Source: a virus
Taxonomy: Duplodnaviria; Heunggongvirae; Uroviricota; Caudoviricetes
Reading direction: 5' to 3' (one strand)
DNA length: 43,893 bases
IMG/VR virus record: IMGVR_UViG_2645727810_000025
Span: 1 to 43,893 of that record
A program made the position numbers and the translations under genes. How positions within the stretch are numbered: the stretch's first letter is position 1; every line of letters starts with the position of its first letter. The notes beneath the pieces were generated by a model. It worked only from the letters and a program-made list of their open reading frames with translations. It was not told the DNA's origin and ran no database searches. This document shows, piece after piece, positions 16,861 to 38,312 of the stretch.

Positions 16861-18531
16861 ATGGCGGAAACCGAAAAAGAGCGTCTGCTGAAGCAGCTAG
16901 CACAGCTGAAGAGTGAGCGCACATCGTTCGAATCGCACTGGCGTGACCTGAGCGATTTTATCAATCCGCGCGGTTCCCGCTTTCTGACGTCTGATGTAAA
17001 CCGTGATGATCGTCGTAACACCAAGATTGTTGATCCTACCGGCTCAATGGCTCAGCGCATTCTGTCCAGCGGCATGATGTCCGGCATCACGAGCCCGGCA
17101 CGTCCATGGTTCAAACTGGCAACGCCTGACCCTGACATGATGGATTACGGCCCGGTGAAAGTCTGGCTTGAAGTCGTGCAGCGCCGCATGAACGAAGTGT
17201 TCAACAAGTCTAACCTGTATCAGTCACTGCCTGTCATGTACGCCAGCCTGGGTACTTTCGGCACCGCCGCTATGGCTGTGCTGGAAGATGACCAGGACGT
17301 TATCCGCACAATGCCTTTCCCGATTGGCAGCTACTACCTGGCTAACAGCCCGCGCGGCAGCGTCGACACTTCATTCCGTCAGTTCTCCATGACTGTTCGT
17401 CAACTGGTGCAGGAATTCGGTCTGGATAACGTCAGCTCATCGGTGCAGGGGATGTGGCAAAACGGCACGTATGAAACGTGGATCGAGGTTAACCACTGCA
17501 TTACGCCAAACGTTAACCGCGACACAGGGAAGATGGACAGCAAGAACAAGCCGTTCCGCTCCGTGTACTTCGAGAGTGGCGGCGACTCCGACAAGCTGCT
17601 GCGTGAATCCGGATTCGATGAATTCCCGATCCTTGCTCCGCGCTGGGAAGTTAACGGCGAAGACGTTTACGCATCATCCTGCCCCGGCATGCTGGCACTC
17701 GGTCAGGTTAAAGCCCTTCAGGTTGAGCAGAAGCGTAAGGCTCAGCTCATAGATAAGGCCACTAACCCGCCGATGGTTGCACCGACGTCACTTAAAACGC
17801 AGCGTGTTTCCCTGCTTCCTGGTGATGTGACGTACCTCGACGTGTTGAGCGGTCAGGACGGTTTCAAACCTGCATACCTGGTAAACCCGAATACTGCAGA
17901 TCTGCTGGCTGATATTCAGGATACCCGCCAGACCATCAACAGCGCCTACTTTGTCGACCTCTTCATGATGCTGCAAAACATCAATACCCGCTCTATGCCG
18001 GTGGAAGCGGTGATCGAGATGAAGGAAGAGAAACTGCTGATGCTTGGCCCGGTGCTGGAGCGCCTGAACGACGAAGCGCTTAACCCGCTTATTGACCGCG
18101 TGTTCTCCATTATGGCGCGCAAAAATATGCTTCCGCCACCGCCTGACGTTATGCAGGGTATGCCGCTGCGTATCGAATACATCTCCGTTATGGCGCAGGC
18201 TCAGAAATCTATCGGACTCACCAGCCTTTCGCAGACCGTTGGCTTCATTGGCCAACTCGCACAGTTCAAACCTGAAGCACTCGACAAGCTCGATGTGGAT
18301 GAGGCTATCGACGCGTTCTCCGAAATGTCCGGCGTATCGCCAACCGTCATCATTCCGCAGGAGCAGGTTCAGGGCATTCGTGAAGAGCGCGCCAAACAGG
18401 CACAAGCCGCACAGGCAATGGCAATGGGGCAGGCCGTAGCGCAGGGAGCCAAGACTCTCAGCGAGACGCAAACCACTGACCCGAGCGCATTAACCGCTAT
18501 CGCTAATGCAGCAGGAGCACCGCAGCAATGA
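16861..18531 (+). CDS. portal protein
   Basis: 556 aa; first large gene after the terminase region, followed by scaffold and capsid; N-terminal pattern resembles podovirus portal proteins. Confidence 0.75.
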   Translation: MAETEKERLLKQLAQLKSERTSFESHWRDLSDFINPRGSRFLTSDVNRDDRRNTKIVDPTGSMAQRILSSGMMSGITSPARPWFKLATPDPDMMDYGPVKVWLEVVQRRMNEVFNKSNLYQSLPVMYASLGTFGTAAMAVLEDDQDVIRTMPFPIGSYYLANSPRGSVDTSFRQFSMTVRQLVQEFGLDNVSSSVQGMWQNGTYETWIEVNHCITPNVNRDTGKMDSKNKPFRSVYFESGGDSDKLLRESGFDEFPILAPRWEVNGEDVYASSCPGMLALGQVKALQVEQKRKAQLIDKATNPPMVAPTSLKTQRVSLLPGDVTYLDVLSGQDGFKPAYLVNPNTADLLADIQDTRQTINSAYFVDLFMMLQNINTRSMPVEAVIEMKEEKLLMLGPVLERLNDEALNPLIDRVFSIMARKNMLPPPPDVMQGMPLRIEYISVMAQAQKSIGLTSLSQTVGFIGQLAQFKPEALDKLDVDEAIDAFSEMSGVSPTVIIPQEQVQGIREERAKQAQAAQAMAMGQAVAQGAKTLSETQTTDPSALTAIANAAGAPQQ

Positions 18532-18827
18532 CGGATATCGATGACGAAGCCCGCAAAGCAGAGCTTGACGCTAAACAGCAACTTCTGGCGCAGCGCGACA
18601 TTGACGACATTCAGTTTGTCATGGGTAGCGAGCAGGGCCGCCGCGTGATCTGGTCACTGCTTGAGAAAGGTCAGGTGTTCGGTGCTTGCTTCAACGTAGA
18701 TCCACACATCACAGCATTCAACGAAGGGCAGCGCAACCTGGCTCTGGTTCTTTTTCAGCGCGTCATGGCGCACTGCCCCGATCAGTATCTGAAGATGGCC
18801 GCAGAGGCCGGAGAGGACAATTTATGA
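18528..18827 (+). CDS. hypothetical head-morphogenesis protein (99 aa)
   Basis: ATG overlapping the portal stop (ATGA); GGAG SD. Confidence 0.55.
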   Translation: MTDIDDEARKAELDAKQQLLAQRDIDDIQFVMGSEQGRRVIWSLLEKGQVFGACFNVDPHITAFNEGQRNLALVLFQRVMAHCPDQYLKMAAEAGEDNL

Positions 18828-19147: not shown

Positions 19148-19158
19148 GGAGATAACCA

Positions 19159-19866
19159 ATGAATTTGTTTGAACGTCTTCTGCATCGTCGCCTTTGCAAC
19201 GAACAACCTGCTGATGGTGGCGCAGCTCCTGCTGCATCTGAACCTGCTGCATCAACTGGGGATAATCCGGCACCAGCTGGCGATCCGGCTAAATCGGAAG
19301 GCGATAAGTCACAGCCAGGCGCTGAAGGTGACAAACCTCAGGAAGAAAAACCTGCTGATGGTGATAAGCCAGAAGAGAAAAAGCCTGGCGAAGAAAAAGA
19401 GCAGAAGCAGGAAGGCGCGCCGGAGAAATATGAGTTCAAACCAGCCGAAGGACAGGAGCTTGATGCTGCTGCTCTTGAGCAGTTCGAGCCTATCGCCCGT
19501 GAACTGAACCTGACCAATGATCAGGCGCAGAAGATGGTCGACCTGTACGGCACCAAGATCATGCCAATGGTCCAGCAGCAGCAGGCAGAAGCCTGGCAGA
19601 AGACCACCGAGCAGTGGGCTGCTGACGTGAAGGCAGACAAAGAGATCGGCGGCGACAAGCTCACCGGTAACCTGAGCGCTGCACAGCGTGCTCTTGCTCA
19701 GTTCGGTACGCCTGAACTGAAAGAATATCTGGAAGGCACTGGCCTGGGTAATCACCCTGAACTGGTCAAGGCGTTCGTGAAAATCGGTAAAGCCATGTCG
19801 GAAGACGGCATGGTCGATGGCAGTAATCAAGGCCAGCGTAGTGCGGCCGAAGTGCTTTATGGCTAA
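19159..19866 (+). CDS. scaffolding protein
   Basis: 235 aa; acidic, low-complexity, helical (PAAGDPAKSEGDKSQPGAEGDKPQEEKP...); positioned immediately before the major capsid gene; AAGGAG SD. Confidence 0.65.
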   Translation: MNLFERLLHRRLCNEQPADGGAAPAASEPAASTGDNPAPAGDPAKSEGDKSQPGAEGDKPQEEKPADGDKPEEKKPGEEKEQKQEGAPEKYEFKPAEGQELDAAALEQFEPIARELNLTNDQAQKMVDLYGTKIMPMVQQQQAEAWQKTTEQWAADVKADKEIGGDKLTGNLSAAQRALAQFGTPELKEYLEGTGLGNHPELVKAFVKIGKAMSEDGMVDGSNQGQRSAAEVLYG

Positions 19867-19883
19867 TAAGAGAGGATATAACC

Positions 19884-20870
19884 ATGGCTGTTAAAGGCGT
19901 AAATGCGCTGACGCTGGCTGACTGGGCTAAGCGTACTGATCCAAACGGGAAGGTCGATAAGATCGTCGAACTCCTTTCCCAGACCAACGAAATCCTGACG
20001 GACATGATGTTCGTTGAGGGTAACCTGCCAACCGGCCACCGTACTACCGTGCGCTCTGGTTTGCCATCTGCTACCTGGCGTTTGCTTAACTACGGCGTGC
20101 AGCCAAGCAAATCAACTACAGTACAGGTAACCGACACCTGCGGGATGCTGGAAACTTATGCCGAAGTTGACAAGTCACTGGCAGATCTGAACGGCAACAC
20201 CGCTGAATTCCGTCTGTCTGAAGACCGTGCGTTCATCGAAGGCATGAACCAGCAGATGGCTCAGACTCTGTTCTATGGCGATACAAGTGTTAACCCTCAG
20301 CAGTTCATGGGGCTTGCTTCTCGTTATTCCAGCAAATCTGCCGGTAATGGGCAGAACATTATTGATGCTGGCGGTACCGGTACCGACAACACTTCTATCT
20401 GGCTGGTTGTGTGGGGAGAAAACACGGTTCACGGTATTTTCCCGAAAGGTCAGAAAGCAGGATTACAGACTCAGAATCTGGGCGAACAGACGCTTATCGA
20501 TGCTGCTGGTGGTAAATACCAGGGATACCGTACCCACTACAAGTGGGATAACGGACTGGCCCTGCGTGACTGGCGCTACGTTGTTCGCATCGCCAACATC
20601 GATGTGAGCGATCTGTCTGTTCCAGCTTCTGCTGCAAACATCGTCACGATGATGGTTAAAGCGCTGCACCGCGTTCCTAACCTGAAGATGGGTCGCGCGG
20701 CTTTCTACATGAACCGCACTGTTGCCCAGGCACTCGACCTGCAATCTCTGGATAAAGCTTCTCTGGCTCTGTCCGTCAAAGAGACTGAGGGCGAATGGTG
20801 GACCACTTTCCGTGGCATCCCAATCCGTGAAACTGACGCAATTCTGGAAACAGAAGCGCGCGTTGTTTAA
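19884..20870 (+). CDS. major capsid protein
   Basis: 328 aa; position after scaffold, strong SD (GAGAGGAT); partial stem-loop without T-run follows. Confidence 0.75.
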   Translation: MAVKGVNALTLADWAKRTDPNGKVDKIVELLSQTNEILTDMMFVEGNLPTGHRTTVRSGLPSATWRLLNYGVQPSKSTTVQVTDTCGMLETYAEVDKSLADLNGNTAEFRLSEDRAFIEGMNQQMAQTLFYGDTSVNPQQFMGLASRYSSKSAGNGQNIIDAGGTGTDNTSIWLVVWGENTVHGIFPKGQKAGLQTQNLGEQTLIDAAGGKYQGYRTHYKWDNGLALRDWRYVVRIANIDVSDLSVPASAANIVTMMVKALHRVPNLKMGRAAFYMNRTVAQALDLQSLDKASLALSVKETEGEWWTTFRGIPIRETDAILETEARVV

Positions 20871-20921
20871 CGCCTGTCATTAACTAATGGGCCTTAACCG
20901 GCCCATGAATGGAGAAAGAAA

Positions 20922-21362
20922 ATGATCCTCGACAAACTGTTGATGTTCTCCGAGAAGCAGGCGGTTACAGCTTCTGCTGCTTCTACGGATGTGATTGACC
21001 TTGGACCTATCGACGGCACCCGCCGCGATATCGGTGTGGGTTATCCGCTGGAGTTCTGGGCAACCGTTGACACCACTGCGACCGCTGCCGGTGCTGCGAC
21101 TCTTAACGTTCAACTACAGACCAGCCAGGACAACTCCACCTGGACCACTATCTACGATAGCGGTGCTTTGGCACTTGCTGCGTTGACTGCTGGCAAGCGC
21201 CTGTTCTCTGCGAAGGTTCCTGCTGGTGTTCAGCGTTATCTGCGCGTGAACTACACGGTAGGTACTGGCCCACTGACGGCTGGCGCGTTCACCTCGGGAA
21301 TTAACCTGGATGTTGATAACAACAGCCCGTACTACCCGATTCGTTCAAAAGTGACTGGCTAA
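20922..21362 (+). CDS. hypothetical virion protein (146 aa)
   Basis: ATG after GGAGAAAG; Ala/Thr/Gly-rich; between capsid and tubular-like genes. Confidence 0.55.
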   Translation: MILDKLLMFSEKQAVTASAASTDVIDLGPIDGTRRDIGVGYPLEFWATVDTTATAAGAATLNVQLQTSQDNSTWTTIYDSGALALAALTAGKRLFSAKVPAGVQRYLRVNYTVGTGPLTAGAFTSGINLDVDNNSPYYPIRSKVTG

Positions 21363-21372
21363 GGGGATATCG

Positions 21373-21717
21373 ATGTCAGGTGAAAAAGCAAGATACCGAG
21401 TCCTGCGTTTATCACACATTCATAACAACCTATGGCCTGAAGGCTCTGAAGTTGAGTATGACGGTGAGCCGGGCACGGCGCTGGAGCCGCTGAACGATGC
21501 TGCACGTGCAGCAAAGGCTAAAGCAAAGCACAAAGGCGAACCAACGGTTGTCGTTGCTGAGCATGAGCCGCTGAACGATGCGGATAGCGCTGATGATGGT
21601 CTGGATAAACTCCGCGAAGAGTATGAGTTCCTCTTCAACGAGAAACCGCATCACAACGCCAAAGCCGAAACGCTCCGCGAGAAGATCGCAGATAAGCGTA
21701 AAGAACTGGGCGTCTAA
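21373..21717 (+). CDS. hypothetical protein (114 aa)
   Basis: ATG after AAGGGG; followed by an intrinsic terminator. Confidence 0.55.
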   Translation: MSGEKARYRVLRLSHIHNNLWPEGSEVEYDGEPGTALEPLNDAARAAKAKAKHKGEPTVVVAEHEPLNDADSADDGLDKLREEYEFLFNEKPHHNAKAETLREKIADKRKELGV

Positions 21718-21734
21718 GCCTCGCTAATCAAACA

Positions 21735-21756
21735 GGGGGCTTCGGCCCCCTTCTTG
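21735..21756 (+). terminator. rho-independent terminator
   Basis: GGGGGC-ttcg-GCCCCC hairpin followed by TTCTTG. Confidence 0.6.
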
Positions 21757-21768
21757 CAGGAGTCCGTT

Positions 21769-22092
21769 ATGGATCTGGTAAACCTCAAAACCGGCACCGA
21801 CACATATCAGGATGAGGATGGTAAAACCCAGACTCGTGATGATTATCCGTGGGGCCTTTGCATTGAGTTGAACAACGAGACGCTCGCCAAGCTCAAGGCA
21901 ACGCCTCAATCCGCTGGCACTGAAGTAATGATCACCGCAAAGGCAACTATTCGCTCAACGTCTACCCGCGAAACGGAAGATGGAATGCAGCATAACGCCA
22001 GTCTGCAGATCACTGATATGGCACTCAGCCCCGTATCCGGGGAGCAACCGAAGACAGCAGCGCAAACTCTTTACGGTGGGGAGGATGATTAA
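21769..22092 (+). CDS. hypothetical protein (107 aa)
   Basis: ATG at 21769 six nt after AGGAG (the track start at 21754 is TTG). Confidence 0.5.
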   Translation: MDLVNLKTGTDTYQDEDGKTQTRDDYPWGLCIELNNETLAKLKATPQSAGTEVMITAKATIRSTSTRETEDGMQHNASLQITDMALSPVSGEQPKTAAQTLYGGEDD

Positions 22093-22697
22093 TGGCCTCC
22101 GTTATCGAGATCTGCAACCGCGCGCTGAGCAATATCGGCAACAGCCGCAGCATAAACAGTCTGAATGAAGCCAGTAAAGAGGCCGGACAGTGCTCCCTGC
22201 ATTATGATGCTTGCCGCGATGCTGCTCTGGCTGATTTCGACTGGAACTTTGCTACCAAGCGCGTTGCGCTAGCTGATACCAATAATCCACCTCCTGACTG
22301 GCAATACGCCTACCAGTACCCATCTGATTGTGTTCGCATAACCGAGATCATGCCGACAGGCATACGCAATCCTACTGCTGAGCAGCGCATTGAGTATGTT
22401 GTCGGTTCCAATGAGGACCTGACAGGTAAGCTCATTTACACCGATCAGCCGAAAGCGTGGTTGAAGTACGTGGCGCGGGTTACTGACGTCAATATGTATG
22501 ACGCCATTTTTATGGAGGCGCTTTCCTGGCGTCTGGCTGCTGCTATCAATATGGCGCTGACCGGTAGCGCAGATCTCGGTAACAACGCACTGACGATGTA
22601 CAACCGCGTGATCCTGAGTGCTGGCTCACATAGCCAGAACGAATCACAGGAGCCACAACCACCGGTAGATGAGTTCACAGCAGCGAGGTTGTCATAA
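22092..22697 (+). CDS. tail tubular protein A-like (T7 gp11-like)
   Basis: 201 aa; size, position and N-terminal pattern (CNRALSNIG...) resemble podovirus gp11; coupled to the following 825-aa gene. Confidence 0.5.
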   Translation: MASVIEICNRALSNIGNSRSINSLNEASKEAGQCSLHYDACRDAALADFDWNFATKRVALADTNNPPPDWQYAYQYPSDCVRITEIMPTGIRNPTAEQRIEYVVGSNEDLTGKLIYTDQPKAWLKYVARVTDVNMYDAIFMEALSWRLAAAINMALTGSADLGNNALTMYNRVILSAGSHSQNESQEPQPPVDEFTAARLS

Positions 22698-25174
22698 TGG
22701 CTTTTAGCTGGATTCAACCGAGCTTTGCCGGTGGTGAAATTGGTCCGTCACTGTATGGCCGCATTGATATGTCAAAGTATCAGGTGGCGCTTCGCAAGTG
22801 CGATAACTTCATTGTTCGTCAGTATGGCGGTGTCGAGAACAGACCAGGTACGCGCTTTGTTGGCCCAGCTAAATATCCTGATCGCAAGTGCCGGTTAATC
22901 CCGTTTCAGTTCTCGACCGTCCAGACCTACGCGCTTGAGTTCGGTCATAACTATATGCGCGTCATTAAAGACGGAGCTTATGTTCTGACGACCAGTAATG
23001 TGATTTATGAGCTGGCGATGCCGTATGCTGATACCGACCTTTTCCGCATTAAATTCACGCAGAGCGCCGACGTTCTGACGCTGGTGCATCCTGCTTACCC
23101 GCCGAAAGAGCTGCGTCGTTACGCGCACGACAACTGGCAGATTGTCGACGTCACCACCAAAAACGGACCGTTCGAAGATATCAACGTTGACGAGACAGTA
23201 AAGGTATACGCCAGCGCCAGCACCGGCACCATTACGCTGACGGCCAGCTCTGCCATCTTCGGTGCTGAGCAGGTCGGAAAACTGTTCTATCTCGAGCAGC
23301 CTGCTATTGATTCCGTACCGGTATGGGAAACCAGCAAGACCACGGCAATCAATGATGTTCGTCGTGCAGACAGCAACTACTACCGCGCCAATACTGCTGG
23401 CAAGACCGGAACACTTCGCCCTTCGCATACCGAGGGAATGTCGTGGGATGGCTGGGGCGGTACCGGTTCAGATGATACCGGGATCCAGTGGGAGTACCTG
23501 CACAGCGGTTTTGGCATTGCCAGAATCACAGCGGTGGCTGGTGATGGACTGACAGCAACTGCCGATGTGGTTTCATTCATTCCTTCTCAGGCGGTTGGGT
23601 CCACTAACGCCAGCTATAAGTGGGCGAAATACGCATGGAACAGCGTTAACGGCTACCCGAGCACCGTTGTTTACTACCAGCAGAGGCTGTATTTTGCCGC
23701 GTCTACCGCGTACCCGCAAACCATCTGGGCAAGCCGCACCGGCGATTATAAGGACTTCGGAAAGAACAACCCTATTCAGGATGATGATCGGATTATTTAC
23801 ACCTACGCCGGTAGGCAGGTGAATGAAATCCGCCATCTTATTGACGTTGGCAACCTGGTCGCGCTGACTTCCGGAGGGGAATATACGATATCCGGGGACC
23901 AGAATAAGGTTCTCACGCCGTCGGCGTTTTCTTTCAGCTCACAGGGTAATAAAGGGTCCAGTAACGTGCCACCTATTGCCGTGGCTAACATTGCGTTGTT
24001 CATCCAGGAGAAAGGAAGCGTGGTCCGTGATCTGGCGTATTCATTTGATGTTGACGGATACCAGGGCACCGACCTGACCATACTGGCAAACCACCTTTTC
24101 CAGAAGCACAGTATTGTTGACTGGTCATTCTGCATCGTGCCGTACAGCAGCGCGTTCTGCATTCGTGATGACGGCAAGTTGCTGGTGTTGACCTATCTGC
24201 GTGATCAGCAGGTTTTTGCCTGGGCACCGCAATCCAGTGCCGGTAAGTACGAAAGCACCTGCTCCATCAGTGAAGGCAGCGAGGATGCTGTTTATTTCGT
24301 GGTTAACCGTACTATTAATGGGCAGACTGTGCGTTACATCGAGCGCCTTTCCAGTCGCCTGTTCACCAACGATGAAGATGCGTTCTTTGTCGACTGCGGC
24401 CTGAGCTACGACGGACGCAACACATCATCACGCACAATGACCATCAGCGGTGGCACGGGTGACTGGAGCTATCAGGTTGATTATCCGGTTACGGTGAGTG
24501 GTGGAGCGTATTTCGTTAATACTGATGTTGGTTCTCAGATTCAGTTCCCATATACCGGAACGGATCCAGACACCAACGAACCGGTGGCTAAAGAGCTGCG
24601 CGGCGATATCATCTCGGTAACAAGCAATACCGCAGTTACCGTCCGATTCAATCGCAACGTTCCGGAGATACTTCGCAATGTGCCAACAACTAACTGGCAG
24701 ATGGCCCGACAGACGTTCGGCGGCCTTTCTCACCTCGAAGGGCAAACGGTAAACATCCTGTCAGATGCCAGCGTTGAACCACAGAAAACAGTAACTGGTG
24801 GCTCTGTCACGCTGGAATCACCAGGCGCAGTTGTGCACATCGGTCTTCCTATCACTGCTGAATTCGAAACACTGGATATCAATATCAACGGCCAGGAAAC
24901 GCTGCTGGATAAAAAGCAGGTCATTCCTACTGTCACGATGGTGGTTAATGCCAGCCGTGGCATCTGGGCCACTACTCCTGGTGGGACATGGTACGAATAC
25001 CAGCAGCGTGAATTTGAGTTCTACGACGATCCTGTTGATGACGCTACCGGCAAGGTTGAAGTAAAACTCGACAGCAACTGGGATAAAAACGGACGCGTTA
25101 AGGTTCGCCAACTTGATCCTTTGCCGCTGTCAGTGCTTGCTGTTCTTCCTCGACTTACCGTCGGAGGCTTCTGA
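22697..25174 (+). CDS. tail tubular protein B-like (T7 gp12-like)
   Basis: 825 aa; size and order after the gp11-like gene. Confidence 0.55.
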   Translation: MAFSWIQPSFAGGEIGPSLYGRIDMSKYQVALRKCDNFIVRQYGGVENRPGTRFVGPAKYPDRKCRLIPFQFSTVQTYALEFGHNYMRVIKDGAYVLTTSNVIYELAMPYADTDLFRIKFTQSADVLTLVHPAYPPKELRRYAHDNWQIVDVTTKNGPFEDINVDETVKVYASASTGTITLTASSAIFGAEQVGKLFYLEQPAIDSVPVWETSKTTAINDVRRADSNYYRANTAGKTGTLRPSHTEGMSWDGWGGTGSDDTGIQWEYLHSGFGIARITAVAGDGLTATADVVSFIPSQAVGSTNASYKWAKYAWNSVNGYPSTVVYYQQRLYFAASTAYPQTIWASRTGDYKDFGKNNPIQDDDRIIYTYAGRQVNEIRHLIDVGNLVALTSGGEYTISGDQNKVLTPSAFSFSSQGNKGSSNVPPIAVANIALFIQEKGSVVRDLAYSFDVDGYQGTDLTILANHLFQKHSIVDWSFCIVPYSSAFCIRDDGKLLVLTYLRDQQVFAWAPQSSAGKYESTCSISEGSEDAVYFVVNRTINGQTVRYIERLSSRLFTNDEDAFFVDCGLSYDGRNTSSRTMTISGGTGDWSYQVDYPVTVSGGAYFVNTDVGSQIQFPYTGTDPDTNEPVAKELRGDIISVTSNTAVTVRFNRNVPEILRNVPTTNWQMARQTFGGLSHLEGQTVNILSDASVEPQKTVTGGSVTLESPGAVVHIGLPITAEFETLDININGQETLLDKKQVIPTVTMVVNASRGIWATTPGGTWYEYQQREFEFYDDPVDDATGKVEVKLDSNWDKNGRVKVRQLDPLPLSVLAVLPRLTVGGF

Positions 25175-28807: not shown

Positions 28808-28808
28808 G

Positions 28809-30515: not shown

Positions 30516-33061
30516 TGGCTAACGAATTTCTGACGCAATGCGAAATGACCGTCAATACGGCTGCCGGGCGCAAGCTGTCTGAGGACGAAATGGAATCTCT
30601 GGTGCGTGACATGAACGACACCACTAACCGGATCCTGGCTGGCAATGAAGCACTGACACTGGAAGAAGCGGCGATGCGCGCCGCGCAGGAGCTTGGCAAC
30701 CGCGAGCAACTGGCGAAAGTAATCGAGGCACGCAACAAGGCCATCAATACGCGCATTGCAGCGCAGCGCCTCGGTGAGCTTCGCCGGACGTGGAAAGACA
30801 GGCCTGACATTGGGCTGGAAGCAATGCTGGTAGGCCGCAATGACGCGCGCACCGGCTCCCGCCGCTCTGTATCGTCTGAGGTGGCCCAGCTGCGCGGGAA
30901 GTATCACGCCGGTATTAACTACGATTTCGACCAGGCCGGGCTGGTTAAATTTATTGCCAGCGGCAGCAACGACCGGGAGATCGCCGACGCCATGTGGCGC
31001 ATCGGTCGCGGACAGAAAACGGACGGCATGACGCCACAATCTGTCAGTGCTGCGAAGATCATCATGAAGTGGCAGGAAACTGCGCGCGTGGATGAAAACC
31101 GTGCTGGTGCCTGGATCGGCAAGATGCCCGGCTACATCGTACGGCAGTCGCATGACATCCTGAAAATTCGTGCCGCCGGGTATGAGTCCTGGCGCAATGC
31201 CATTCTGCCGCGCCTTGATGATATGACATTTGACGGGATCACCGACCGCGATGGATTCCTGCGTGGCGTTTATGATGGCTTGGCCTCCGGCGTGCACCTG
31301 ACATCTGAAAAGCCTGACTGGATGAATGGCTTCAAGGGATCGTCTAACGCGGCGAAGCGCGCCAGCCAGGAGCGCGTGCTGCACTTCAAAGACGGTGTTA
31401 ACTGGCACGAATACAATGAGCAATTCGGGACCGGCAGCCTGCGAGAAGCAGTATTCGGTGGCCTGAACAGCGCGGCGCGCACGACGGGCATGATGCGCGT
31501 ACTGGGCACTAACCCGCAGAACATGTTCAAGTACCTGACAGACACCATCGCCAAAGACGTGAGTAAGCAGAGCAACCCTGCGGCGCTGGCAGATTTCATG
31601 ACCAAAGTTCGCCGGCTGAATCGCACGGTGATGCCTCAGGTAGACGGATCTCTGAATATCCCCGGCAGTGTCGGCTGGGCCAATGCCTCCGCTAACGTGC
31701 GCGGCTGGCTGCGAATGAGTCAGCTCGGCGGCGCGGTTATTTCGTCTTTTAACGACGTGCCGATCTCGGCGACAGAAATGCGGTATCAGGGCCAGAATTT
31801 TATGCAGGCGCTGACCGGCGCAATGAAGGGGCGCTTCTCCCGCTACACCAGTGATGAGCAGAAGGAAATTCTTTCCTCCATCGGCGTTTATTCCGACACG
31901 ATGACGCAAGAGATCATCCGTCGCATGTCCGGCGACGACAGCATGAGCGGGAAGATGGGCCGTGCGCAGCAACTGTTCTTCAAATACAACCTCATGAACT
32001 TCTGGACAGAATCCGGGCGTAACAGCAACGCCATGATGATAACCAACTGGCTGGCGAAGAACGCGGATCAGCAGTTCACGGCGTTGCCGGAAGACCTGCG
32101 CCGCGTGCTGGACCTGCACGGCATAGGTGACGCTGAATGGAATATCTACCGCAGCATGGACATGGCAGACAGCGAAGGCCGCAAATTCATGACGACCAGC
32201 GGAATTCGTGGCGTTCCGGATGAGGTGATAGCCTCATATGTTGAAGGAAAAGGCATGAAGGTCACCGAGCGATCTATTGCCGATGCGAGAGACACGCTGG
32301 AAAGCCAACTTCGTGGGTATATTCTTGACCGACTAAACATCGCTATGTCAGAGCCGGGAGACCGTACGCAGGCGTTTATGAAGATGGGCACTGTACCAGG
32401 AACAGTAGCTGGGGAGGCAATACGTTTCGCTGGTCAGTACAAATCGTTCACTGCGAGTTTCATGCAGAACGTGCTTGGACGTGAGGTATTCGGGCGTGGT
32501 TATACTCCCGCAGGACTGGGTGAGTCGAAAACCGGATCTCTGACGAATGCGCTGCTGCGTAACGGAAAAGGTGCATTCTTGGGGGCGGCAAACCTGTTCG
32601 TCTGGGCAACCATGTTTGGCTATATCTCTATGCAGTCGAAACTATTGCTTAAGGGGCAGACGCCGCGTCCGGCAGATGCCAAGACATTCCTCGCAGCCGC
32701 ATCTCAGGGCGGAGGCCTAGGCATCTTAGGCGACTTCATGTTTGGCGAAGTCAATCGCATGGGGGCTGGTCCAGTGACATCATTGATGGGGCCAGCCGCG
32801 TCGAACGCTGATAGCATTATCACGTTGTTCCAGCAGACAACGCGCGGCGATGCAGACCTGGGTGACTGGTATCGCACCGCGCTGGACAATACGCCTTTCC
32901 TTAACGTGTTCTGGCTGCGCACAGCAATGAATGGTTTAATATTGAACCGTATACAGGATGCGCTTGACCCAGGCTCTTTGGAGCGATATCAGCGCCGGGT
33001 TGAGCGTGAGCAGGGTAACGACTTTCTGATTCCACCATCGCAGTTCATGCTAGGGAAGTAA
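30515..33061 (+). CDS. internal virion / ejection protein
   Basis: 848 aa; coupled to the previous gene; with it, comparable in total length to T7 gp16. Confidence 0.55.
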   Translation: MANEFLTQCEMTVNTAAGRKLSEDEMESLVRDMNDTTNRILAGNEALTLEEAAMRAAQELGNREQLAKVIEARNKAINTRIAAQRLGELRRTWKDRPDIGLEAMLVGRNDARTGSRRSVSSEVAQLRGKYHAGINYDFDQAGLVKFIASGSNDREIADAMWRIGRGQKTDGMTPQSVSAAKIIMKWQETARVDENRAGAWIGKMPGYIVRQSHDILKIRAAGYESWRNAILPRLDDMTFDGITDRDGFLRGVYDGLASGVHLTSEKPDWMNGFKGSSNAAKRASQERVLHFKDGVNWHEYNEQFGTGSLREAVFGGLNSAARTTGMMRVLGTNPQNMFKYLTDTIAKDVSKQSNPAALADFMTKVRRLNRTVMPQVDGSLNIPGSVGWANASANVRGWLRMSQLGGAVISSFNDVPISATEMRYQGQNFMQALTGAMKGRFSRYTSDEQKEILSSIGVYSDTMTQEIIRRMSGDDSMSGKMGRAQQLFFKYNLMNFWTESGRNSNAMMITNWLAKNADQQFTALPEDLRRVLDLHGIGDAEWNIYRSMDMADSEGRKFMTTSGIRGVPDEVIASYVEGKGMKVTERSIADARDTLESQLRGYILDRLNIAMSEPGDRTQAFMKMGTVPGTVAGEAIRFAGQYKSFTASFMQNVLGREVFGRGYTPAGLGESKTGSLTNALLRNGKGAFLGAANLFVWATMFGYISMQSKLLLKGQTPRPADAKTFLAAASQGGGLGILGDFMFGEVNRMGAGPVTSLMGPAASNADSIITLFQQTTRGDADLGDWYRTALDNTPFLNVFWLRTAMNGLILNRIQDALDPGSLERYQRRVEREQGNDFLIPPSQFMLGK

Positions 33062-33062
33062 T

Positions 33063-33434
33063 ATGAACAGAATTATATTAATGACTCTTCTTATTTTTTT
33101 TGTTGGAAAAGCTTCTGCTGATACTACATCACCTTTAATGATTCAGCCTAAAAATGGAGAAACATTGGAGGATTCTAAAAAGCATACAATGGAATACTTT
33201 GGATGCATAAAAGGGCAGGCTGTAAAGTATGCCAAGACAGGAGAAAGTGTTGATTCCATATCAAAAGCTTCGGTTGTGTCATGCGAGTCATACATACCAA
33301 TGATCGCCGAGTCGAATATATATTATTTAAACTCTTCGCAAGATGGTAAGCGGCAATTTACAGAAAGGCTAAAATCTGATGGTGAGAGATTAGCCACAAA
33401 ATTTGCCATGGATGAGAAGATTAAAAATAAATAG
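33063..33434 (+). CDS. secreted/periplasmic hypothetical protein (AT-rich moron)
   Basis: 123 aa with signal peptide MNRIILMTLLIFFVGKASA/DT; visibly lower GC than the flanking structural genes. Confidence 0.6.
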   Translation: MNRIILMTLLIFFVGKASADTTSPLMIQPKNGETLEDSKKHTMEYFGCIKGQAVKYAKTGESVDSISKASVVSCESYIPMIAESNIYYLNSSQDGKRQFTERLKSDGERLATKFAMDEKIKNK

Positions 33435-33442
33435 GTGACCAC

Positions 33443-33739
33443 ATGCAAGCTATTGGTTTCATTGTTTACATAGTTGTTGGTCTTTTTCAGTTGGCTGCGA
33501 TCATGGCTGGTCTTGAATCGTGGTGGGGACTGCACTGGATAGTGGCTGCACCCATTGCTTTCATCGTTAGTTATATCCCGTTGGTCGGTTCCATTGTTGG
33601 AATGGTTGGCGCTGTCGACGTATGGCGTTGGGAATGGTGGCAGGCAGGGCTTCTTTTCTTTGGCGGCCTGGTTTTTGCTATTGCGTGCGGGGGAATGTCT
33701 TCGTTCTTCGAATGGCTATCCTTCAGGAAAAGAGCGTGA
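33443..33739 (+). CDS. small integral membrane protein (98 aa, about 3 TM segments)
   Basis: Hydrophobic Trp-rich sequence; ATG after AGGTGA; stop lies inside the GTGACATGTCAC palindrome. Confidence 0.6.
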   Translation: MQAIGFIVYIVVGLFQLAAIMAGLESWWGLHWIVAAPIAFIVSYIPLVGSIVGMVGAVDVWRWEWWQAGLLFFGGLVFAIACGGMSSFFEWLSFRKRA

Positions 33740-33747
33740 CATGTCAC
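33736..33747. repeat. 12-bp perfect palindrome GTGACATGTCAC (copy 3)
   Basis: Overlaps the TGA stop of the 33443-33739 gene; followed by a terminator. Confidence 0.7.
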
Positions 33748-33749
33748 AA

Positions 33750-33776
33750 AGGCCGCCGAAGCGGCCTTAATTTTTT
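33750..33776. terminator. bidirectional intrinsic terminator
   Basis: AGGCCGC-cgaa-GCGGCCT hairpin followed by TAATTTTTT; between convergent genes. Confidence 0.65.
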
Positions 33777-33927
33777 AACGCCCGCCAGGACGAGAATCGG
33801 CAGAACGACCACCGCAGCGTGATCCATCCGAAGCCGTATCGCTGTCATGCTGGCAGTTTCCAGCAAAAGCTTGTGTAGCAGAACCCAGAGACAACAGAAC
33901 AAACAGCACTGCTAATGCTTTTTTCAT
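33775..33927 (-). CDS. candidate small secreted protein (50 aa), below the ORF-track cutoff
   Basis: My own translation: MKKALAVLFVLLSLGSATQAFAGNCQHDSDTASDGSRCGGRSADSRPGGR; canonical signal peptide with AFA cleavage motif; weak SD. Confidence 0.4.
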   Translation of the reverse strand: MKKALAVLFVLLSLGSATQAFAGNCQHDSDTASDGSRCGGRSADSRPGGR

Positions 33928-33995
33928 TTCTTAATTCCATGTGTAGGCCACTAAATTATGGCGAAGAATTGTAGCGCGTCCATGCGCTACCGTCA

Positions 33996-34685
33996 TCAGA
34001 ACTTACCAGTCATGCTGTTGATGTACTGCACATGAGTCTGGATATCGCGCAGGCATTTACTGGCACCTACGATGTAGCTCATCATGGCCGTGAACTCTGC
34101 TACAGCACCTTCAACATCATGTCCGTCGGCGTCCATCTTCCGCAGCAGGTCCATCAGCATCGATCGCTCCGTCAGGCCAAGAACGCCTTCAGGTGAATGG
34201 ATGTGTTCACGGTAGTTCGGCTTGAGTGGTGCGCTGTATTCCTGTTTCTCTTCCGTTTTCATCGCTTCCAGAATGGCGGGCATGAAGCTGGCCACAACCT
34301 TTTGCGCTTTGTCTGCCGGTGATAATTCTTCACGAACGTAGCGACCGGTGCGACGTATCTGCGGGAGAACTTCGCCAGTTACCCATTTGCGGAAACGATA
34401 GGGGATAGTACCAGGAGTTACCGCATCGCGGCAGCGCAGGATCAGAGTGTAGAGGCCGGATTCAGAGATGATGAGGGTATTAGGGTTCCCTCGTTTTCCG
34501 TCGGTTAAAGCGACGGTATTCTTTTCGTCGTCATCCAATTTAAGCAGAGCATCACGGTTGTTTGATATACCAAGAGCATTACATACATCTAACGCAATAA
34601 ACCATGGCTCGCCGTCGATGATGATTGCACGAATATCGGCTTGCGATTCGAAAGAAAAAACTGAAGTATTTTTTTGAGTTGTCAT
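33996..34685 (-). CDS. phage antirepressor, Bro-N domain protein
   Basis: 229 aa from ATG at 34685 (AAGGTG SD; the track's first codon at 34694 is GTG); N-terminal Bro-N pattern (FSFESQADIRAIIIDGEPWFIALDVCNALGI). Confidence 0.7.
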   Translation of the reverse strand: MTTQKNTSVFSFESQADIRAIIIDGEPWFIALDVCNALGISNNRDALLKLDDDEKNTVALTDGKRGNPNTLIISESGLYTLILRCRDAVTPGTIPYRFRKWVTGEVLPQIRRTGRYVREELSPADKAQKVVASFMPAILEAMKTEEKQEYSAPLKPNYREHIHSPEGVLGLTERSMLMDLLRKMDADGHDVEGAVAEFTAMMSYIVGASKCLRDIQTHVQYINSMTGKF

Positions 34686-34843
34686 AGTGATCACCTTTTA
34701 GTCTGGTTAATCACCACCGGAGGTTCCAATCTCGGAGGTGGTGAACTGTGCAGGGTTGGAACTACCGGCTAAAAGGACCCGGCGCACCTTTCGGTGCCCC
34801 CACACAGCCCACCATAATGCGAATGTGGCCGTGCTTAACGCAT

Positions 34844-34945
34844 AAAAAAACCGCTTGCGCGGTGAATGCGCCTTTTAGTATCCGGGGTTCCAATCCCGGC
34901 ACTGGATTTTGCCAGTGCCTGATCACTATGGCACAAGTATTTTGC
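34844..34945 (-). ncRNA. candidate small regulatory RNA upstream of the antirepressor gene (C4-antisense-like architecture)
   Basis: Minus-strand order: palindromic promoter-like site (34955-34969), then 8-bp stem-loop GGCACUGG/CCAGUGCC, 5-bp stem-loop with loop AUUGGAAC, then CCGC-GCAA-GCGG hairpin plus U7; the loop motif GAUUGGAAC recurs in a hairpin at 34715-34745 in the antirepressor 5' UTR. Confidence 0.3.
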
Positions 34946-34954
34946 GTTGTAAAT

Positions 34955-34969
34955 TTACCGTAAAGGTAA
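34955..34969. promoter_or_regulatory. operator-like palindrome TTACCGTAAAGGTAA
   Basis: TTACC-N5-GGTAA followed by TAATAAG; upstream of the candidate RNA and antirepressor. Confidence 0.5.
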
Positions 34970-35000
34970 TAATAAGCGCATAGTGTATGATATTTCAACC

Positions 35001-35261
35001 TTATGTGGTTTGTCTTCGTAGCTGTTCAACACAGTAATCGAGATGTGTCTGCACATCCTTCATGGATAGCTGTGAGCTGGTGACATAGTTCACCAGTGCA
35101 GTAAGTTCGGCCAGCGGCCCGTCGACGTTGAACCCGTCTTTATCAAGTTCCCGCAATAAAGTCATAAGGTGCGAGTTCTCCACCAGGGATATAACGCCTC
35201 CCGGCGTGTGTACTCTTTCATAAAATCCATCTTCCAGTGGGTGGTGATACCGCTGTTGCAT
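35001..35261 (-). CDS. small protein paralogous to the antirepressor C-terminal domain (86 aa)
   Basis: ATG at 35261 with GGAG SD (the track start at 35279 is TTG); HTPGGVISLVENSHLMTLLRELDKDGFNVDGPLAELTALVNYV aligns with HSPEGVLGLTERSMLMDLLRKMDADGHDVEGAVAEFTAMMSYI of the 33996 gene. Confidence 0.55.
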   Translation of the reverse strand: MQQRYHHPLEDGFYERVHTPGGVISLVENSHLMTLLRELDKDGFNVDGPLAELTALVNYVTSSQLSMKDVQTHLDYCVEQLRRQTT

Positions 35262-35337
35262 TAACCATTCTCCATACAAACACTGTATATATATACATAT
35301 ATCAGATGAACCACTGTTTCACCAGTATGATTTTTAA

Positions 35338-35352
35338 TTACCTGTGAGGTAA
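35338..35352. promoter_or_regulatory. operator-like palindrome TTACCTGTGAGGTAA
   Basis: TTACC-N5-GGTAA followed by TAACT; in the divergent region about 100 bp upstream of the tail fibre gene. Confidence 0.5.
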
Positions 35353-35456
35353 TAACTTTGTTGATTACATCTCGTGCGATTCATATATGGTTCGTTGGGT
35401 AATAGAATAACCAGTAGTGCGGTGCGCCGGGTGCTGCGACTTTCTGGAGTTTAAAC

Positions 35457-38168
35457 ATGACGGTCTCAACCGAAGTTGACCACAATGACTACACGGGTAA
35501 CGGGGTCACGACATCATTCCCCTATACCTTCCGAATTTTTCATAAGTCTGATCTGGTGGTGCAGGTTGTTGACCTGAGCGAAAACATCACTGAATTAACA
35601 CTGGACACTGACTACACGGTGACAGGTGCTGGCGGATATACTGGCGGGAATGTTGTTTTATCGTCGCCTCTTGCCAATGGTTATCAGATTTCGATATCCA
35701 GAGAGTTACCGGTTACCCAGGAGACTGATCTCAGAAATCAGGGTAAGTTTTTCGCAGAAGTGCATGAGGATGCTTTTGATAAGTTGACCATGCTGATACA
35801 GCAGGCAATTAGCTGGCTGCGCCTTTCTTTACGTAAGCCGTCTTTTATTGCAAATTATTATGATGCCCTGGGTAACTACATACGAAATCTTCGTGACCCG
35901 TCACGACCACAGGATGCAGCTACAAAAAATTACGTTGACGGGGTTGCTGAAGGTAACATTTCTTATGCAGATTCTCTATTTAAAAGAACCTTAAGAGTTC
36001 CTGAGGATTATGTTGACCAGATACCATCAAATGCTGATAGATCAAATAAAATACTTGCTTTTGATTCTGGAGGTAAACCGATTGCTGTTTTACCTGAATC
36101 TGGTTCTGCTTCAGATGTTTTAATTGAGCTGGCAAATAACGGTGATAAAAAAATTGGTAGCTCATATGGTGGCACAGTTTATAGCGACTACCAACAATCA
36201 ATTTTTGTCAAAAAAGGAGATTTTTATTCCGGTTTAAGCATATCGGGAAAAGATGATGCCTACCTTTTTTCTGATGGGCTATGGTATGTATGGACTGGCG
36301 CATTACCGCACACGATCTTGTCGGGTGAAACTCCTGATGTAGAAACAACTAAATGGGCTTGTGTAGGCCTGCTTAATGGGCATGAAATTTGTTCTGCTCT
36401 TAACTATAGCGATTCATGGGGCATCCATGATGATTCACCATTACTTCGCAAAGCCATCATTAGTTTAATAAGAACTGGATATGCAAGATTTTGCATTAAC
36501 GCTGGCGTTACTATTAACCTTTTTACTGATTGCGAAATTCCGTTCTATCTGGATGGGAGGGCTGTGTCTTTCCGTTTTCATGGAGAAACAGCAATTGGTT
36601 CTTTAGGAAGAGTGTCAGAACTAGTAGTAGCTCTAGGTATTAGAGGTCTTGTATTCGAGGCTATTCAAGTAGAGATTGACCATTTCACTATGCGTCAGTG
36701 GGTTGGTAATGCTGGGCAGTCTATTGTCAGTTATACATCTGATACAGTTACGCTATCTTTTGACCCATGGCCTGACGGACGCACCCCAGTGATATGGCCT
36801 TGGGGAACTACTGCTGGTGATGGCACTGTTTACACAAGCTTTTTAGAATTTACAACTGACAGTGGTGGTTATTACGCATCTGGCGTAACTCGCAACTTAG
36901 ATGGAACCGTAACACTAACCAATGTCCATCCTATTGGGCCAACTAATACAATCGCTTCCGCAACGATTGTTAACTTTTTCCAGAGTCATGCTAATAACTA
37001 TCCAGAAGGAAGTTTCGCAGATACGGCAGCAGTAATCACCCTGGGGGTATCAGAAAACCCATTTATTCATAACTTATGGGTGCTTGCTGTCTATCGAGGC
37101 TTTGCTCACGGTCTTGGCTCTGGAGCAGGTCCGGGAGTATTGATGGGAAATATCGGCGTATGGTCTGATATTGTCGTAGACAACGCTTTATACTTTATAG
37201 CTAATACTGATGTGAATCCATCATCTGGGCAAGGCATCAACAATGGGATGTTCAATAACATTCAGTTATCAAACGTCCGTCGTGGAATAAGAGCACGTAG
37301 AGCCTACAATCTTGCATTCACAAACCTTCAGCATATTGCTAGCGGTAATGTTTCATTTGATGCTGTTACTATACTGGCAAATGAAATAGAAGGTGTTACT
37401 TTAAATGGATCTCAGTTTGGTTGGACATCTATCGACTGGGTTATAGATACATGGGTTCCTAAACTACTCAAGTGTACCCGATTACGTCGCTCCTCTATTA
37501 CTGGATGCGTGTTCGGTCGACATGATGTAACCATCACAAGAGGTGCCGTAATTGACGTTAAGGACGGCACAATACTAGGTTTAACACTAACTGGTAATTC
37601 TATGGTTACAATCGACGAAAACTCAGATTCAAGTAACTATGGATGGATTGAGTGTAATGAGCTTAAATCATCAGTTATTTCTGATAACTCCCCTAGTTCA
37701 GGTAGTGAGCTTGGTGGAAGCATTAATCTCTCGCTGAGAACTGCTTCTAATGACTTAACAAAATTTGATAACACATATTTTGGTCAACCAGTCAGAACAA
37801 ACGCAGAAGCTGGTGTGTTTGATAATGAACTAGCATCCGGTGGAAATGTTTTTGACAGCACAACTGAATACAGAGACGCAGGTAAAATTTTAATCTTTGT
37901 TGATGTAAACAATGCTGCTGTATGGCCTGATAATTCAAGGAATATCATACCATTCGGCGGAGGATTAACAGGAGGTAAAACACTTGGATTGCCTACCCCA
38001 GCAGTACTCCTGTCATTGAAAAGAAGAAGTGTTCTGGTTGATTTGTCATCTGTGGTTTTTGGTAGCCAGACAATTGGAGTGTATAACGGGGCAACTTTGG
38101 TATCAACAATATCAACTCCTGGTGTTTATGAGTTTCTCCTCGTAGGGGCAAAATACATAAAATTATAA
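35457..38168 (+). CDS. tail fibre / tailspike protein with T7 gp17-like N-terminal adaptor domain
   Basis: 903 aa; N-terminus (DYTGNGVTTSFPYTFRIFHKSDLVVQVV...TLDTDYTV) parallels the T7 tail-fibre N-terminal domain; long C-terminal Gly/Ser/Thr/Asn-rich region; GGAG SD; terminator downstream. Confidence 0.75.
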   Translation: MTVSTEVDHNDYTGNGVTTSFPYTFRIFHKSDLVVQVVDLSENITELTLDTDYTVTGAGGYTGGNVVLSSPLANGYQISISRELPVTQETDLRNQGKFFAEVHEDAFDKLTMLIQQAISWLRLSLRKPSFIANYYDALGNYIRNLRDPSRPQDAATKNYVDGVAEGNISYADSLFKRTLRVPEDYVDQIPSNADRSNKILAFDSGGKPIAVLPESGSASDVLIELANNGDKKIGSSYGGTVYSDYQQSIFVKKGDFYSGLSISGKDDAYLFSDGLWYVWTGALPHTILSGETPDVETTKWACVGLLNGHEICSALNYSDSWGIHDDSPLLRKAIISLIRTGYARFCINAGVTINLFTDCEIPFYLDGRAVSFRFHGETAIGSLGRVSELVVALGIRGLVFEAIQVEIDHFTMRQWVGNAGQSIVSYTSDTVTLSFDPWPDGRTPVIWPWGTTAGDGTVYTSFLEFTTDSGGYYASGVTRNLDGTVTLTNVHPIGPTNTIASATIVNFFQSHANNYPEGSFADTAAVITLGVSENPFIHNLWVLAVYRGFAHGLGSGAGPGVLMGNIGVWSDIVVDNALYFIANTDVNPSSGQGINNGMFNNIQLSNVRRGIRARRAYNLAFTNLQHIASGNVSFDAVTILANEIEGVTLNGSQFGWTSIDWVIDTWVPKLLKCTRLRRSSITGCVFGRHDVTITRGAVIDVKDGTILGLTLTGNSMVTIDENSDSSNYGWIECNELKSSVISDNSPSSGSELGGSINLSLRTASNDLTKFDNTYFGQPVRTNAEAGVFDNELASGGNVFDSTTEYRDAGKILIFVDVNNAAVWPDNSRNIIPFGGGLTGGKTLGLPTPAVLLSLKRRSVLVDLSSVVFGSQTIGVYNGATLVSTISTPGVYEFLLVGAKYIKL

Positions 38169-38175
38169 GCTTAAC

Positions 38176-38200
38176 AGGCCGGGAAACCGGCCTATTTTTT
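38176..38200 (+). terminator. rho-independent terminator
   Basis: AGGCCGG-gaaa-CCGGCCT hairpin followed by ATTTTTT. Confidence 0.7.
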
Positions 38201-38312
38201 ACTAATTATTTTTTGAAGTTACTAAATAGTCACAATGAAAATTTAAACCATATATGGTTTATTGTGTATGATGTGATCACCAACTAATGGGGGTCTTTAT
38301 GCACAGTAAACG

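Follow-up and report, generated by a model that had tools for sequence, protein, structure and literature searches.

Region 16861-38168 of the 43,893-nucleotide Caudoviricetes sequence IMGVR_UViG_2645727810_000025, all of which we analyzed and refer to as the window, raises the question of how virion genes ordered like those of phage T7 come to share a genome with the early and lysogeny genes of a temperate phage. A preliminary description of this DNA had answered that it is an uncommon temperate hybrid carrying a T7-like virion module. We conclude, with high confidence, that the region, with the lysis genes after it, belongs to an integrated epsilon15-like (Uetakevirus-type) temperate podovirus, of which it forms the half devoted to the virion, ejection, and lysis; the prophage lies at the 3' end of guaA in Escherichia coli.

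Megablast searches with the region and with the remaining window retrieved Salmonella phages PAT1, 65FD, and 66FD (∼89-91% identity), epsilon15, and SPN1S/SPC32H, as well as Enterobacter phage Tyrion and the E. coli phages TL-2011b and phiV10. Comparison of the epsilon15 annotation with the open reading frames (ORFs) of the window by BLASTP showed the same gene order throughout, from the terminase genes to the lysis genes and across the early region. Amino acid identities to epsilon15 were, over full length, 96% for the portal and 98.5 and 98.2% for the adaptor (gp11) and nozzle (gp12); they were 88 and 84% for gp13 and gp14. With epsilon15, PAT1, 65FD, SPN1S, SPC32H, Tyrion, phiV10, and TL-2011b the prophage has in common its gene order, attP core, guaA target, and Rep/Ant switch; the likeness to this group continues in the early genes (RecT/exonuclease and a DnaT-like protein), in an integrase (Int) 96% identical to that of epsilon15, and in the portal, adaptor, nozzle, and internal virion proteins A and B (IVP-A and IVP-B; 84-98% identical). 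It differs in having another tailspike receptor module and an extra Bro-N/Ant gene accompanied by C4 and isrK RNAs, and, relative to epsilon15, in lacking an O-antigen conversion cassette within the window. The element is thus a mosaic inside the epsilon15 lineage. This lineage is common, given that 951 of 5426 complete E. coli genomes contain DNA that matches part of the region and that the nozzle family comprises 18,172 cluster representatives at 50% identity; the claim of an uncommon hybrid gives way to that of a collinear member of a widespread group.

The ORFs that the preliminary description had picked out (portal, 16861-18531; capsid genes, 19884-22092; the block 22092-33061; and the tailspike gene, 35457-38168) are all present where it had placed them. 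The packaging and virion genes, up to the end of the structural operon, are as follows.

12693-13334 (+): terminase small subunit (TerS); Pfam Terminase_2; 88% identical to epsilon15 gp1
13331-14812 (+): terminase large subunit (TerL); Pfam Terminase_2; 82% identical to epsilon15 gp2
16861-18531 (+): portal, 556 amino acids; PF12236, E 5.6e-187; epsilon15 gp4; Carin-1 portal 8ck0_A, E 6.6e-180
18528-18827 (+): Bbp19-like small protein; PF25181; 77% identical to epsilon15 gp5
19159-19866 (+): prohead protease; phrog_458, E 7.8e-100; 90% identical to epsilon15 gp6
19884-20870 (+): capsid-shell cassette, major capsid protein; PF20911 (GP7)
20922-21362 (+): capsid-shell cassette, Bbp16-like cement protein; PF21190 (Bbp16)
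21373-21717 (+): capsid-shell cassette, gp9-like protein
21754-22092 (+): capsid-shell cassette, gp10-like decoration protein; PF21628 (Gp10-like)
22092-22697 (+): adaptor (tail tubular protein A homologue), 201 amino acids; phrog_394 and phrog_9239
22697-25174 (+): tail nozzle (tail tubular protein B homologue), 825 amino acids; Carin-1 nozzle 8ck1_A, E 7.8e-210
25174-25638 (+): IVP-A, counterpart of T7 gp13; phrog_308, common to T7 gp13
25638-26186 (+): IVP-B, counterpart of T7 gp14; PF24072 (T7_gp14), E 5.2e-5
26183-33061 (+): three large ejection (core) proteins of 874, 568, and 848 amino acids, assigned after PMC4819975
33063-33434 and 33443-33739 (+): two small ORFs, role unassigned
33749-33768 (+): terminator-like stem-loop, where the structural operon ends

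How far this virion is related to that of T7 depended strongly on the method of comparison. When 21 proteins of the window were compared pairwise with 14 from T7, including gp8-gp19, BLASTP and phmmer gave nothing significant, and the T7 likeness became visible with profiles and structures only. PHROG cross-matches, hidden Markov model (HMM) and HHalign comparisons, and structure searches were adopted because Pfam missed the T7 adaptor, nozzle, and fibre-anchor families: at E ≤0.1 the adaptor had no match to PF17212 (T7 gp11) and the nozzle none to PF25675 (T7 gp12), and PF03906 (the T7 gp17 N-terminal domain) was not detected at the tailspike N-terminus. The portal is the clearest case, since T7 gp8 belongs to the same Pfam family (PF12236, E 2.8e-113) and the two proteins cross-match each other's PHROG families (phrog 332 and 449). 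For the adaptor, homology to T7 is taken from the RefSeq note on epsilon15 gp11, which cites an HHpred match to T7 gp11 (3j4b_A).

The nozzle was modeled with AlphaFold at a predicted local distance difference test (pLDDT) score of 91.9. Foldseek aligned this model with the nozzles of Carin-1 (8ck1_A, template modeling (TM) score 0.91) and LME-1 (TM 0.66) and with a run of T7-family nozzles, including T7 gp12 over full length (E 1e-23, TM 0.53-0.55), and matched P22 gp10 at E 1e-7 only. A nozzle profile of 50 sequences was drawn from representatives, the close homologues (≥83% identical among the matches listed) being too similar for a useful profile. In hmmsearch against a 45-protein set it reached T7 gp12 residues 364-464 (E 9e-5), a stretch inside the 354-556 region of Hardies et al. 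(PMC4819975), and in HHalign residues 350-466 (E 2e-4); P22 gp10 was missed in the same hmmsearch and in HHalign (0.2%). Searched against PDB sequences, the profile matched Carin-1, LME-1 (E 2.5e-54), and a chain named "nozzle gp13" and did not reach T7 gp12 at E ≤1, so that the link to T7 gp12 comes only from the small-database hmmsearch, HHalign, and Foldseek. The relation of adaptor and nozzle to T7 gp11 and gp12 is one of superfamily-level homology, not of family membership.

Two phages provide solved structures of homologous tail parts. Carin-1, a podovirus of Cobetia marina (PDB 8CK0/8CK1), has homologues of the portal, the nozzle (∼43% identity), and the tailspike anchor (domain D1), and Legionella phage LME-1 (PDB 9EFK) has a nozzle homologue at 16% identity; both differ from the prophage in their hosts and receptor-binding domains. 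The tails of both have been described as T7-like, and LME-1, whose tail complex closely resembles that of T7 by the same account, is an integrating element too (PMC12407071).

Among the internal proteins, IVP-A belongs to a PHROG family that includes T7 gp13. The gp14-like protein claimed by the preliminary description is borderline: PF24072, which is also among the precomputed Pfam hits, scored 23.7 bits, under its cut-off of 27. The claimed SLT-domain core protein exists, in that the 874-residue protein carries an SLT lytic transglycosylase domain (PF01464, E 2.5e-15, with SLT70-type PDB matches), yet this domain is internal (residues 233-340), unlike that of T7, which sits at the N-terminus of the 1318-residue gp16. 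The same protein matches epsilon15 gp15 over its first 236 residues only. The 568-residue protein weakly matched phrog_342, the family of T7 gp16 (E 5.7e-5), and had no epsilon15 match by BLASTP; the 848-residue protein is the homologue of epsilon15 gp17/IVP-D (phrog_684, 21% identical to gp17). At ∼77% nucleotide identity, the genes for the large ejection proteins are closest to those of Tyrion, TL-2011b, and E. coli prophages. No counterpart of T7 gp15 was detectable in the window, and one was likewise undetected in the published analysis (PMC4819975). Opposite the ejection-protein genes, a stretch of 58% GC holds a 647-codon antisense ORF (30176-32119, -), which most likely reflects base composition rather than a real gene.

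The last structural gene of the region stands apart from the operon and encodes the receptor-binding protein.

35457-38168 (+): tailspike, 903 amino acids; tail anchor at about residues 1-165, then a linker, then a C-terminal receptor-binding module at 227-903

Residues 1-258 are 76% identical to epsilon15 gp20, with similarity to gp20 confined to the first ∼258 residues, and the N-terminus matches domain D1 of Carin-1 Dpo31 (E 1.7e-25). Five PHROG families are common to this anchor and T7 gp17. Because mixed PHROG profiles could explain these shared families, clean N-terminal alignments were built from fetched loci, with 13 epsilon15-type and 14 T7-type N-termini. The two aligned in HHalign with 98.7% probability over 150 collinear columns (E 3.9e-16; reversed control, 0.1%), the T7-type anchor HMM matched the window tailspike N-terminus (E 2.4e-7), and tblastn with this N-terminus gave a direct hit (E 2e-4) to the tail fibre of HTVC142P, an Autographiviridae phage. 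By sequence comparison, homology to the T7 gp17 anchor covers the first ∼160 residues, and the likeness is limited to the anchor; the gp17-like fibre of the preliminary description shrinks to this segment, and the remainder was modeled, at low confidence, as a beta-helix tailspike module.

Residues 227-903 match phrog_22294 across the full length of that family, and the DNA encoding the C-terminal module has 41% GC vs. ∼52% for the window. Its homologues from E. coli, Salmonella, and Citrobacter are joined to three kinds of anchor (the epsilon15 type, the P22 head-binding domain PF09008, and the T7 domain PF03906); the module is thus a receptor-binding cassette that podovirus lineages exchange, a point relevant to host-range prediction. 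Homologues of the stretch encoded at 36135-38168 (P0008, P0016, and P0009-P0012) were 75-90% identical, the PF03906 fusions being 881 and the PF09008 fusions 797 residues long. A model of the C-terminus (pLDDT 65) matched other tailspikes and beta-helix enzymes (polysaccharide lyases and hydrolases) in Foldseek at TM 0.14-0.24; the module is probably a beta-helix, a low-confidence assignment of fold class only. A depolymerase-type tailspike is likely, in line with the receptor-binding or depolymerase C-terminus proposed earlier.

Between the tailspike stop (38168) and the holin start (38313) lie 144 bases with only a terminator-like stem-loop at 38176-38193, and no O-antigen modification gene was found at 38169-38312. 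The corresponding interval holds an O-antigen polymerase and inhibitor (gp21/gp22) in epsilon15 and an acetyltransferase in phiV10 (oac), Tyrion, and PAT1.

The head is of a different type from that of T7. Its genes comprise a PF20911 capsid protein, a phrog_458 protease, and Bbp16- and gp10-like accessory proteins, whereas the T7 controls gave a PF21703 capsid and a PF05396 scaffold, of which no homologue was found among the window proteins. These assignments put the cement and decoration proteins with the BPP-1/epsilon15 types, and the capsid, protease, and terminase are not T7-type. The capsid-shell genes (19884-22092) are only 36-44% identical to epsilon15 gp7-gp10, in contrast to 96-98% for the portal, adaptor, and nozzle on their flanks, and the match to PAT1/65FD at ∼89% nucleotide identity spans the cassette; the divergence looks like a cassette exchange within the morphogenesis operon. 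Upstream of the portal, the gap from TerL is ∼2.05 kb here and ∼1.1 kb in epsilon15, and ∼0.8 kb at about 15800-16600, between the terminase and the gp3-like/portal genes, contained no ORF of ≥60 amino acids, no Rfam family, and no terminator-like site.

Taken by profile and by model, then, the portal, nozzle, IVP-A, and tailspike anchor share deep homology with their T7 counterparts, and it is for these parts that the claim of a T7-like virion module stands; it fails for the capsid, protease, and terminase. The likeness extends to the order portal, adaptor, nozzle, IVP-A, IVP-B, large ejection proteins, and then fibre or spike. It does not extend to the terminase, which here lies upstream and is of another type, or to the receptor-binding part, a tailspike here vs. 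a gp37-type fibre tip. Homology of the epsilon15 and T7 tails and ejection proteins was published in 2016 (Hardies et al., PMC4819975): within a broad homology group of tail and ejection proteins, T7 included, the epsilon15 group forms one branch, its capsid and terminase having another history, and the divergence from T7 is ancient. An internal core stack like that of T7 is reported for epsilon15, with the cryo-electron microscopy (cryo-EM) studies cited (PMC8954989). Temperate podoviruses with a distantly T7-related tail and ejection apparatus are the epsilon15 group, already described (PMC4819975).

The boundaries of the prophage bear on the integrase that the preliminary description had ascribed to the phage.

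40080-40098 (+): attR core ATTGAGTGGGAATGATTTA, the last bases of guaA; right-hand prophage end
40401-43893: integrase (40401-41591, +) and two hypothetical genes of a neighboring integrative element, non-phage

Positions 25457-43893 are 100% identical to NCBI contig JHQV01000010.1, and positions 1-8825 are 99.96% identical in another lysogen, L010. Three copies of the 19-bp core ATTGAGTGGGAATGATTTA were located: one at 40080-40098, one in L010 where guaA meets int left of the window, and one in the attP region of epsilon15. Immediately left of the window, as seen in this near-identical lysogen, lies the phage's own Int (417 amino acids), the homologue of the epsilon15 enzyme noted above. From 40080 to 43893 the window is 99.8% identical to E. 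coli chromosomes without a prophage at guaA, and in such strains guaA is followed directly by the 396-residue integrase of 40401-41591, two hypothetical genes, and then AlpA-type, RepA-type, and Trb conjugation genes. Because of the attR core at 40080-40098 and the match to prophage-free chromosomes, the integrase at 40401-41591, which is 52.7% identical to the phage Int, lies outside the prophage. It belongs to the neighboring integrative element, not to the phage.

A circularly permuted free phage genome, with genes abutting both window ends, was also considered and was ruled out, as host and island DNA make up the right end, and in the 99.96%-identical lysogen the left end runs into int and guaA. 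The prophage and the integrative element share one guaA site, in tandem on a single 19-bp core, and the element follows guaA directly in many E. coli strains. We regard it as improbable, and mention only as a speculation, that the two interact, with the Int/Xis of the phage, or that of the element, acting on the shared hybrid att site and the island being co-excised or mobilized, and, separately, that tailspike residues 227-903 represent an uncharacterized polysaccharide-cleaving family moving between epsilon15-, P22-, and T7-type anchors.

The lysogeny genes comprise a repressor near the left end of the window and a leftward antirepressor locus between the structural operon and the tailspike.

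5704-6300 (-): repressor of the SPC32H Rep type, 198 amino acids; PDB 5d50_A, E 6.2e-129, full length; in Pfam HTH_3 only, residues 109-150
33996-34694 (-): Bro-N protein with a C-terminal Ant-like domain, 232 amino acids; PF02498, E 8e-21; residues 151-226 resemble 5d50_E, E 2.9e-16
34734-34819 (-): C4 antisense RNA; Rfam RF01695, 77.1 bits, above the gathering score
34844-34918 (-): isrK-like small RNA; Rfam RF01394, 76.1 bits, above the gathering score
35001-35261 (-): small antirepressor of the SPC32H Ant type, 86 amino acids; PDB 5d50_E, E 5.4e-45, full length; 78% identical to epsilon15 gp19
35283-35298: near-consensus LexA box CTGTATATATATACAT, directly ahead of the Ant operon; one mismatch to CTGTATATATATACAG

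The repressor gene diverges from a small Cro-like gene at 6456-6689 (+; 77 amino acids, no Pfam match), which bears out the layout of the CI/Cro-type switch claimed previously; the repressor itself is of the SPC32H Rep type, with a helix-turn-helix domain and no S24 peptidase domain found by Pfam. A search for the LexA consensus allowing ≤3 mismatches found one site where 0.06 chance matches were expected, and the exact pattern CTGT-N8-ACAG had no match. The position of the box directly upstream of an SPC32H-type Ant gene suggests SOS induction via antirepression rather than by repressor cleavage. The switch has the layout of that in lambda and, judging from the genes and the site, most likely works by LexA-controlled antirepression and not by self-cleavage of the repressor. 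LexA control of antirepression in SPC32H was reportedly described by Kim and Ryu in 2013. In the SPC32H system the Ant tetramer disrupts the Rep tetramer, and Rep is inactivated through Ant binding (PMC9638917).

The likeness to the SPC32H switch (PDB 5D50) covers full-length homologues of Rep and of the 86-residue Ant and a LexA-box-like site upstream of ant. The prophage also carries a second, longer protein with an Ant-like C-terminus fused to Bro-N, its gene preceded by the C4 and isrK RNAs. The whole locus (33996-35298) reads in one orientation, from the small Ant through the isrK-like RNA and the C4 RNA to the Bro-N/Ant-like gene. The two RNAs lie immediately upstream of the latter gene, between it and the small Ant. 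This arrangement suggests that the second antirepressor may be under RNA-level control, for which immI of P1/P7 is a precedent.

Several observations weigh against placing the prophage squarely with epsilon15. At 78-91% nucleotide identity, the best single phage records align with 37-60% of the query; formal genus membership (identity times coverage as used by the International Committee on Taxonomy of Viruses, ∼70% whole-genome nucleotide identity) would lie beyond what these figures establish, which come from megablast with the window as query, the int end of the prophage being outside the window. The capsid-shell cassette is as divergent as described above, and the three large ejection proteins show, respectively, an N-terminal match, no match, and 21% identity to their epsilon15 counterparts. 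The serotype-conversion genes of epsilon15 are absent from the tailspike-holin interval; these are an accessory trait of epsilon15 and no requirement of the genus. Adaptor and nozzle fall short of the T7 Pfam models and the gp14 match is under the curated cut-off, and both the inducibility of the prophage and the enzymatic activity of its tailspike are predicted here from sequence and models alone.

These points have to be set beside the other origins that could be proposed for the region. If it were a rare and recent hybrid, in which a virion module of the T7 group (Autographiviridae) had been combined with lambdoid early and lysogeny genes, then the portal family common with T7, the T7 gp12-like nozzle fold, the gp17-type anchor, and the missing polymerases would all be accounted for. 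Against such an origin, no T7 structural protein shows significant pairwise similarity; the same genes are instead 84-98% identical to those of epsilon15 in a genome collinear with it throughout, the lineage is abundant, and the capsid, scaffold/protease, and terminase fall in families other than those of T7, from which the divergence is ancient (PMC4819975). We therefore consider a recent hybrid very unlikely and already effectively refuted. Of the two outcomes that the preliminary description had named as refuting it, the searches bore out one, placing the structural proteins in a non-T7 lineage, and not the other, since the gp17-like similarity is significant. A P22-like (Lederbergvirus) prophage would also be a temperate enterobacterial podovirus with a tailspike, Ead/Ea22-type early genes, and an antirepressor locus between its structural genes and its tailspike, and the C-terminal module of the present tailspike does occur on P22-type head-binding domains. 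None of the window structural proteins, however, had a BLASTP match to any of 12 P22 structural proteins (including gp1, gp5, gp4, gp10, gp7, gp20, gp16, and gp9) at E ≤0.01, the nozzle fold is far closer to T7 gp12 than to P22 gp10, which its profile did not recover in HHalign, and the tailspike is without PF09008 by Pfam. The chance that the prophage is P22-like is negligible, the sequence comparisons having, in our reading, already refuted it.

The epsilon15-like prophage might still be a defective or cryptic remnant that no longer forms particles. It is known here from sequence alone, the window itself is without a phage integrase, and the prophage sits in tandem with another element at guaA. 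On the other hand, an intact integrase lies just outside the window in the near-identical lysogen, the AlpA-type Xis candidate and both att cores are intact, none of the ORFs for morphogenesis, ejection, or lysis is truncated relative to epsilon15, and an identical tailspike is indexed in 47 blocks of a public assembly collection. We accordingly judge a remnant improbable, though less so than either of the foreign origins just discussed.

For an intact epsilon15-like prophage, the structures of the Carin-1, LME-1, and T7 tails and the epsilon15 cryo-EM reports point to a dodecameric portal that would carry a dodecameric adaptor and a hexameric nozzle, with six trimeric tailspikes docked at the adaptor/nozzle junction via their gp17-type N-terminal anchors. 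The swappable C-terminal module, probably a beta-helix, would bind and probably cleave surface polysaccharide. The internal proteins (the counterparts of gp13 to gp17) would sit on the portal, be ejected at infection, and form a channel across the envelope, and the SLT domain would cut peptidoglycan. The head is of the epsilon15/BPP-1 type, with protease, cement, and decoration proteins, and lysogeny is held by the SPC32H-type Rep. By the SPC32H route, induction would begin when SOS takes LexA off the box at 35283-35298, so that the 86-residue Ant is made and Rep is inactivated. Host RNA polymerase and replisome do the work, with only a DnaT-like initiator and no polymerases coming from the phage.

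As a discovery the element matters little, its exact sequence being already in a public E. coli assembly. The outcome is mainly corrective and concerns the extent of the T7 relationship, the owner of the in-window integrase, and the LexA/Ant/Rep type of switch.

The early region encodes an MT-A70 methylase, the AlpA-type Xis candidate, RecT, a PDDEXK exonuclease, a phosphoesterase, the DnaT-like initiator, RuvC, and Ead/Ea22 and DUF551 proteins. The RecT/Exo genes, the antirepressor, and the temperate lifestyle noted in the preliminary description are thus present. No RNA polymerase, DNA polymerase, or primase-helicase was found by Pfam among the window ORFs, in agreement with the earlier claim that a single-subunit RNA polymerase, a DNA polymerase, and a primase-helicase are lacking. 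All ORFs of >400 amino acids are assigned otherwise (TerL, portal, nozzle, three ejection proteins, and tailspike), the sole extra being the probably spurious antisense ORF at 30176-32119. Replication genes are limited to the DnaT-like initiator, RuvC, RecT, and the PDDEXK exonuclease. Between the exonuclease and the repressor, a 330-codon ORF (4341-5333, -) without a Pfam match is present in lysogen L010 and absent at the same position in lysogen L009; it looks like a variable accessory (moron-like) gene.

Lysis genes follow the tailspike and extend almost to attR.

38313-39969 (+): lysis cassette with two holin-family proteins, endolysin, and an Rz-like DUF2514 protein; PF16931, PF05449, and PF10721
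39011-39490 (+): CHAP-domain endolysin, 159 amino acids; PF05257 (CHAP)

This endolysin is a further difference from epsilon15, whose equivalent gene goes under the name glycoside hydrolase family 19 or chitinase class I in the records of related phages.

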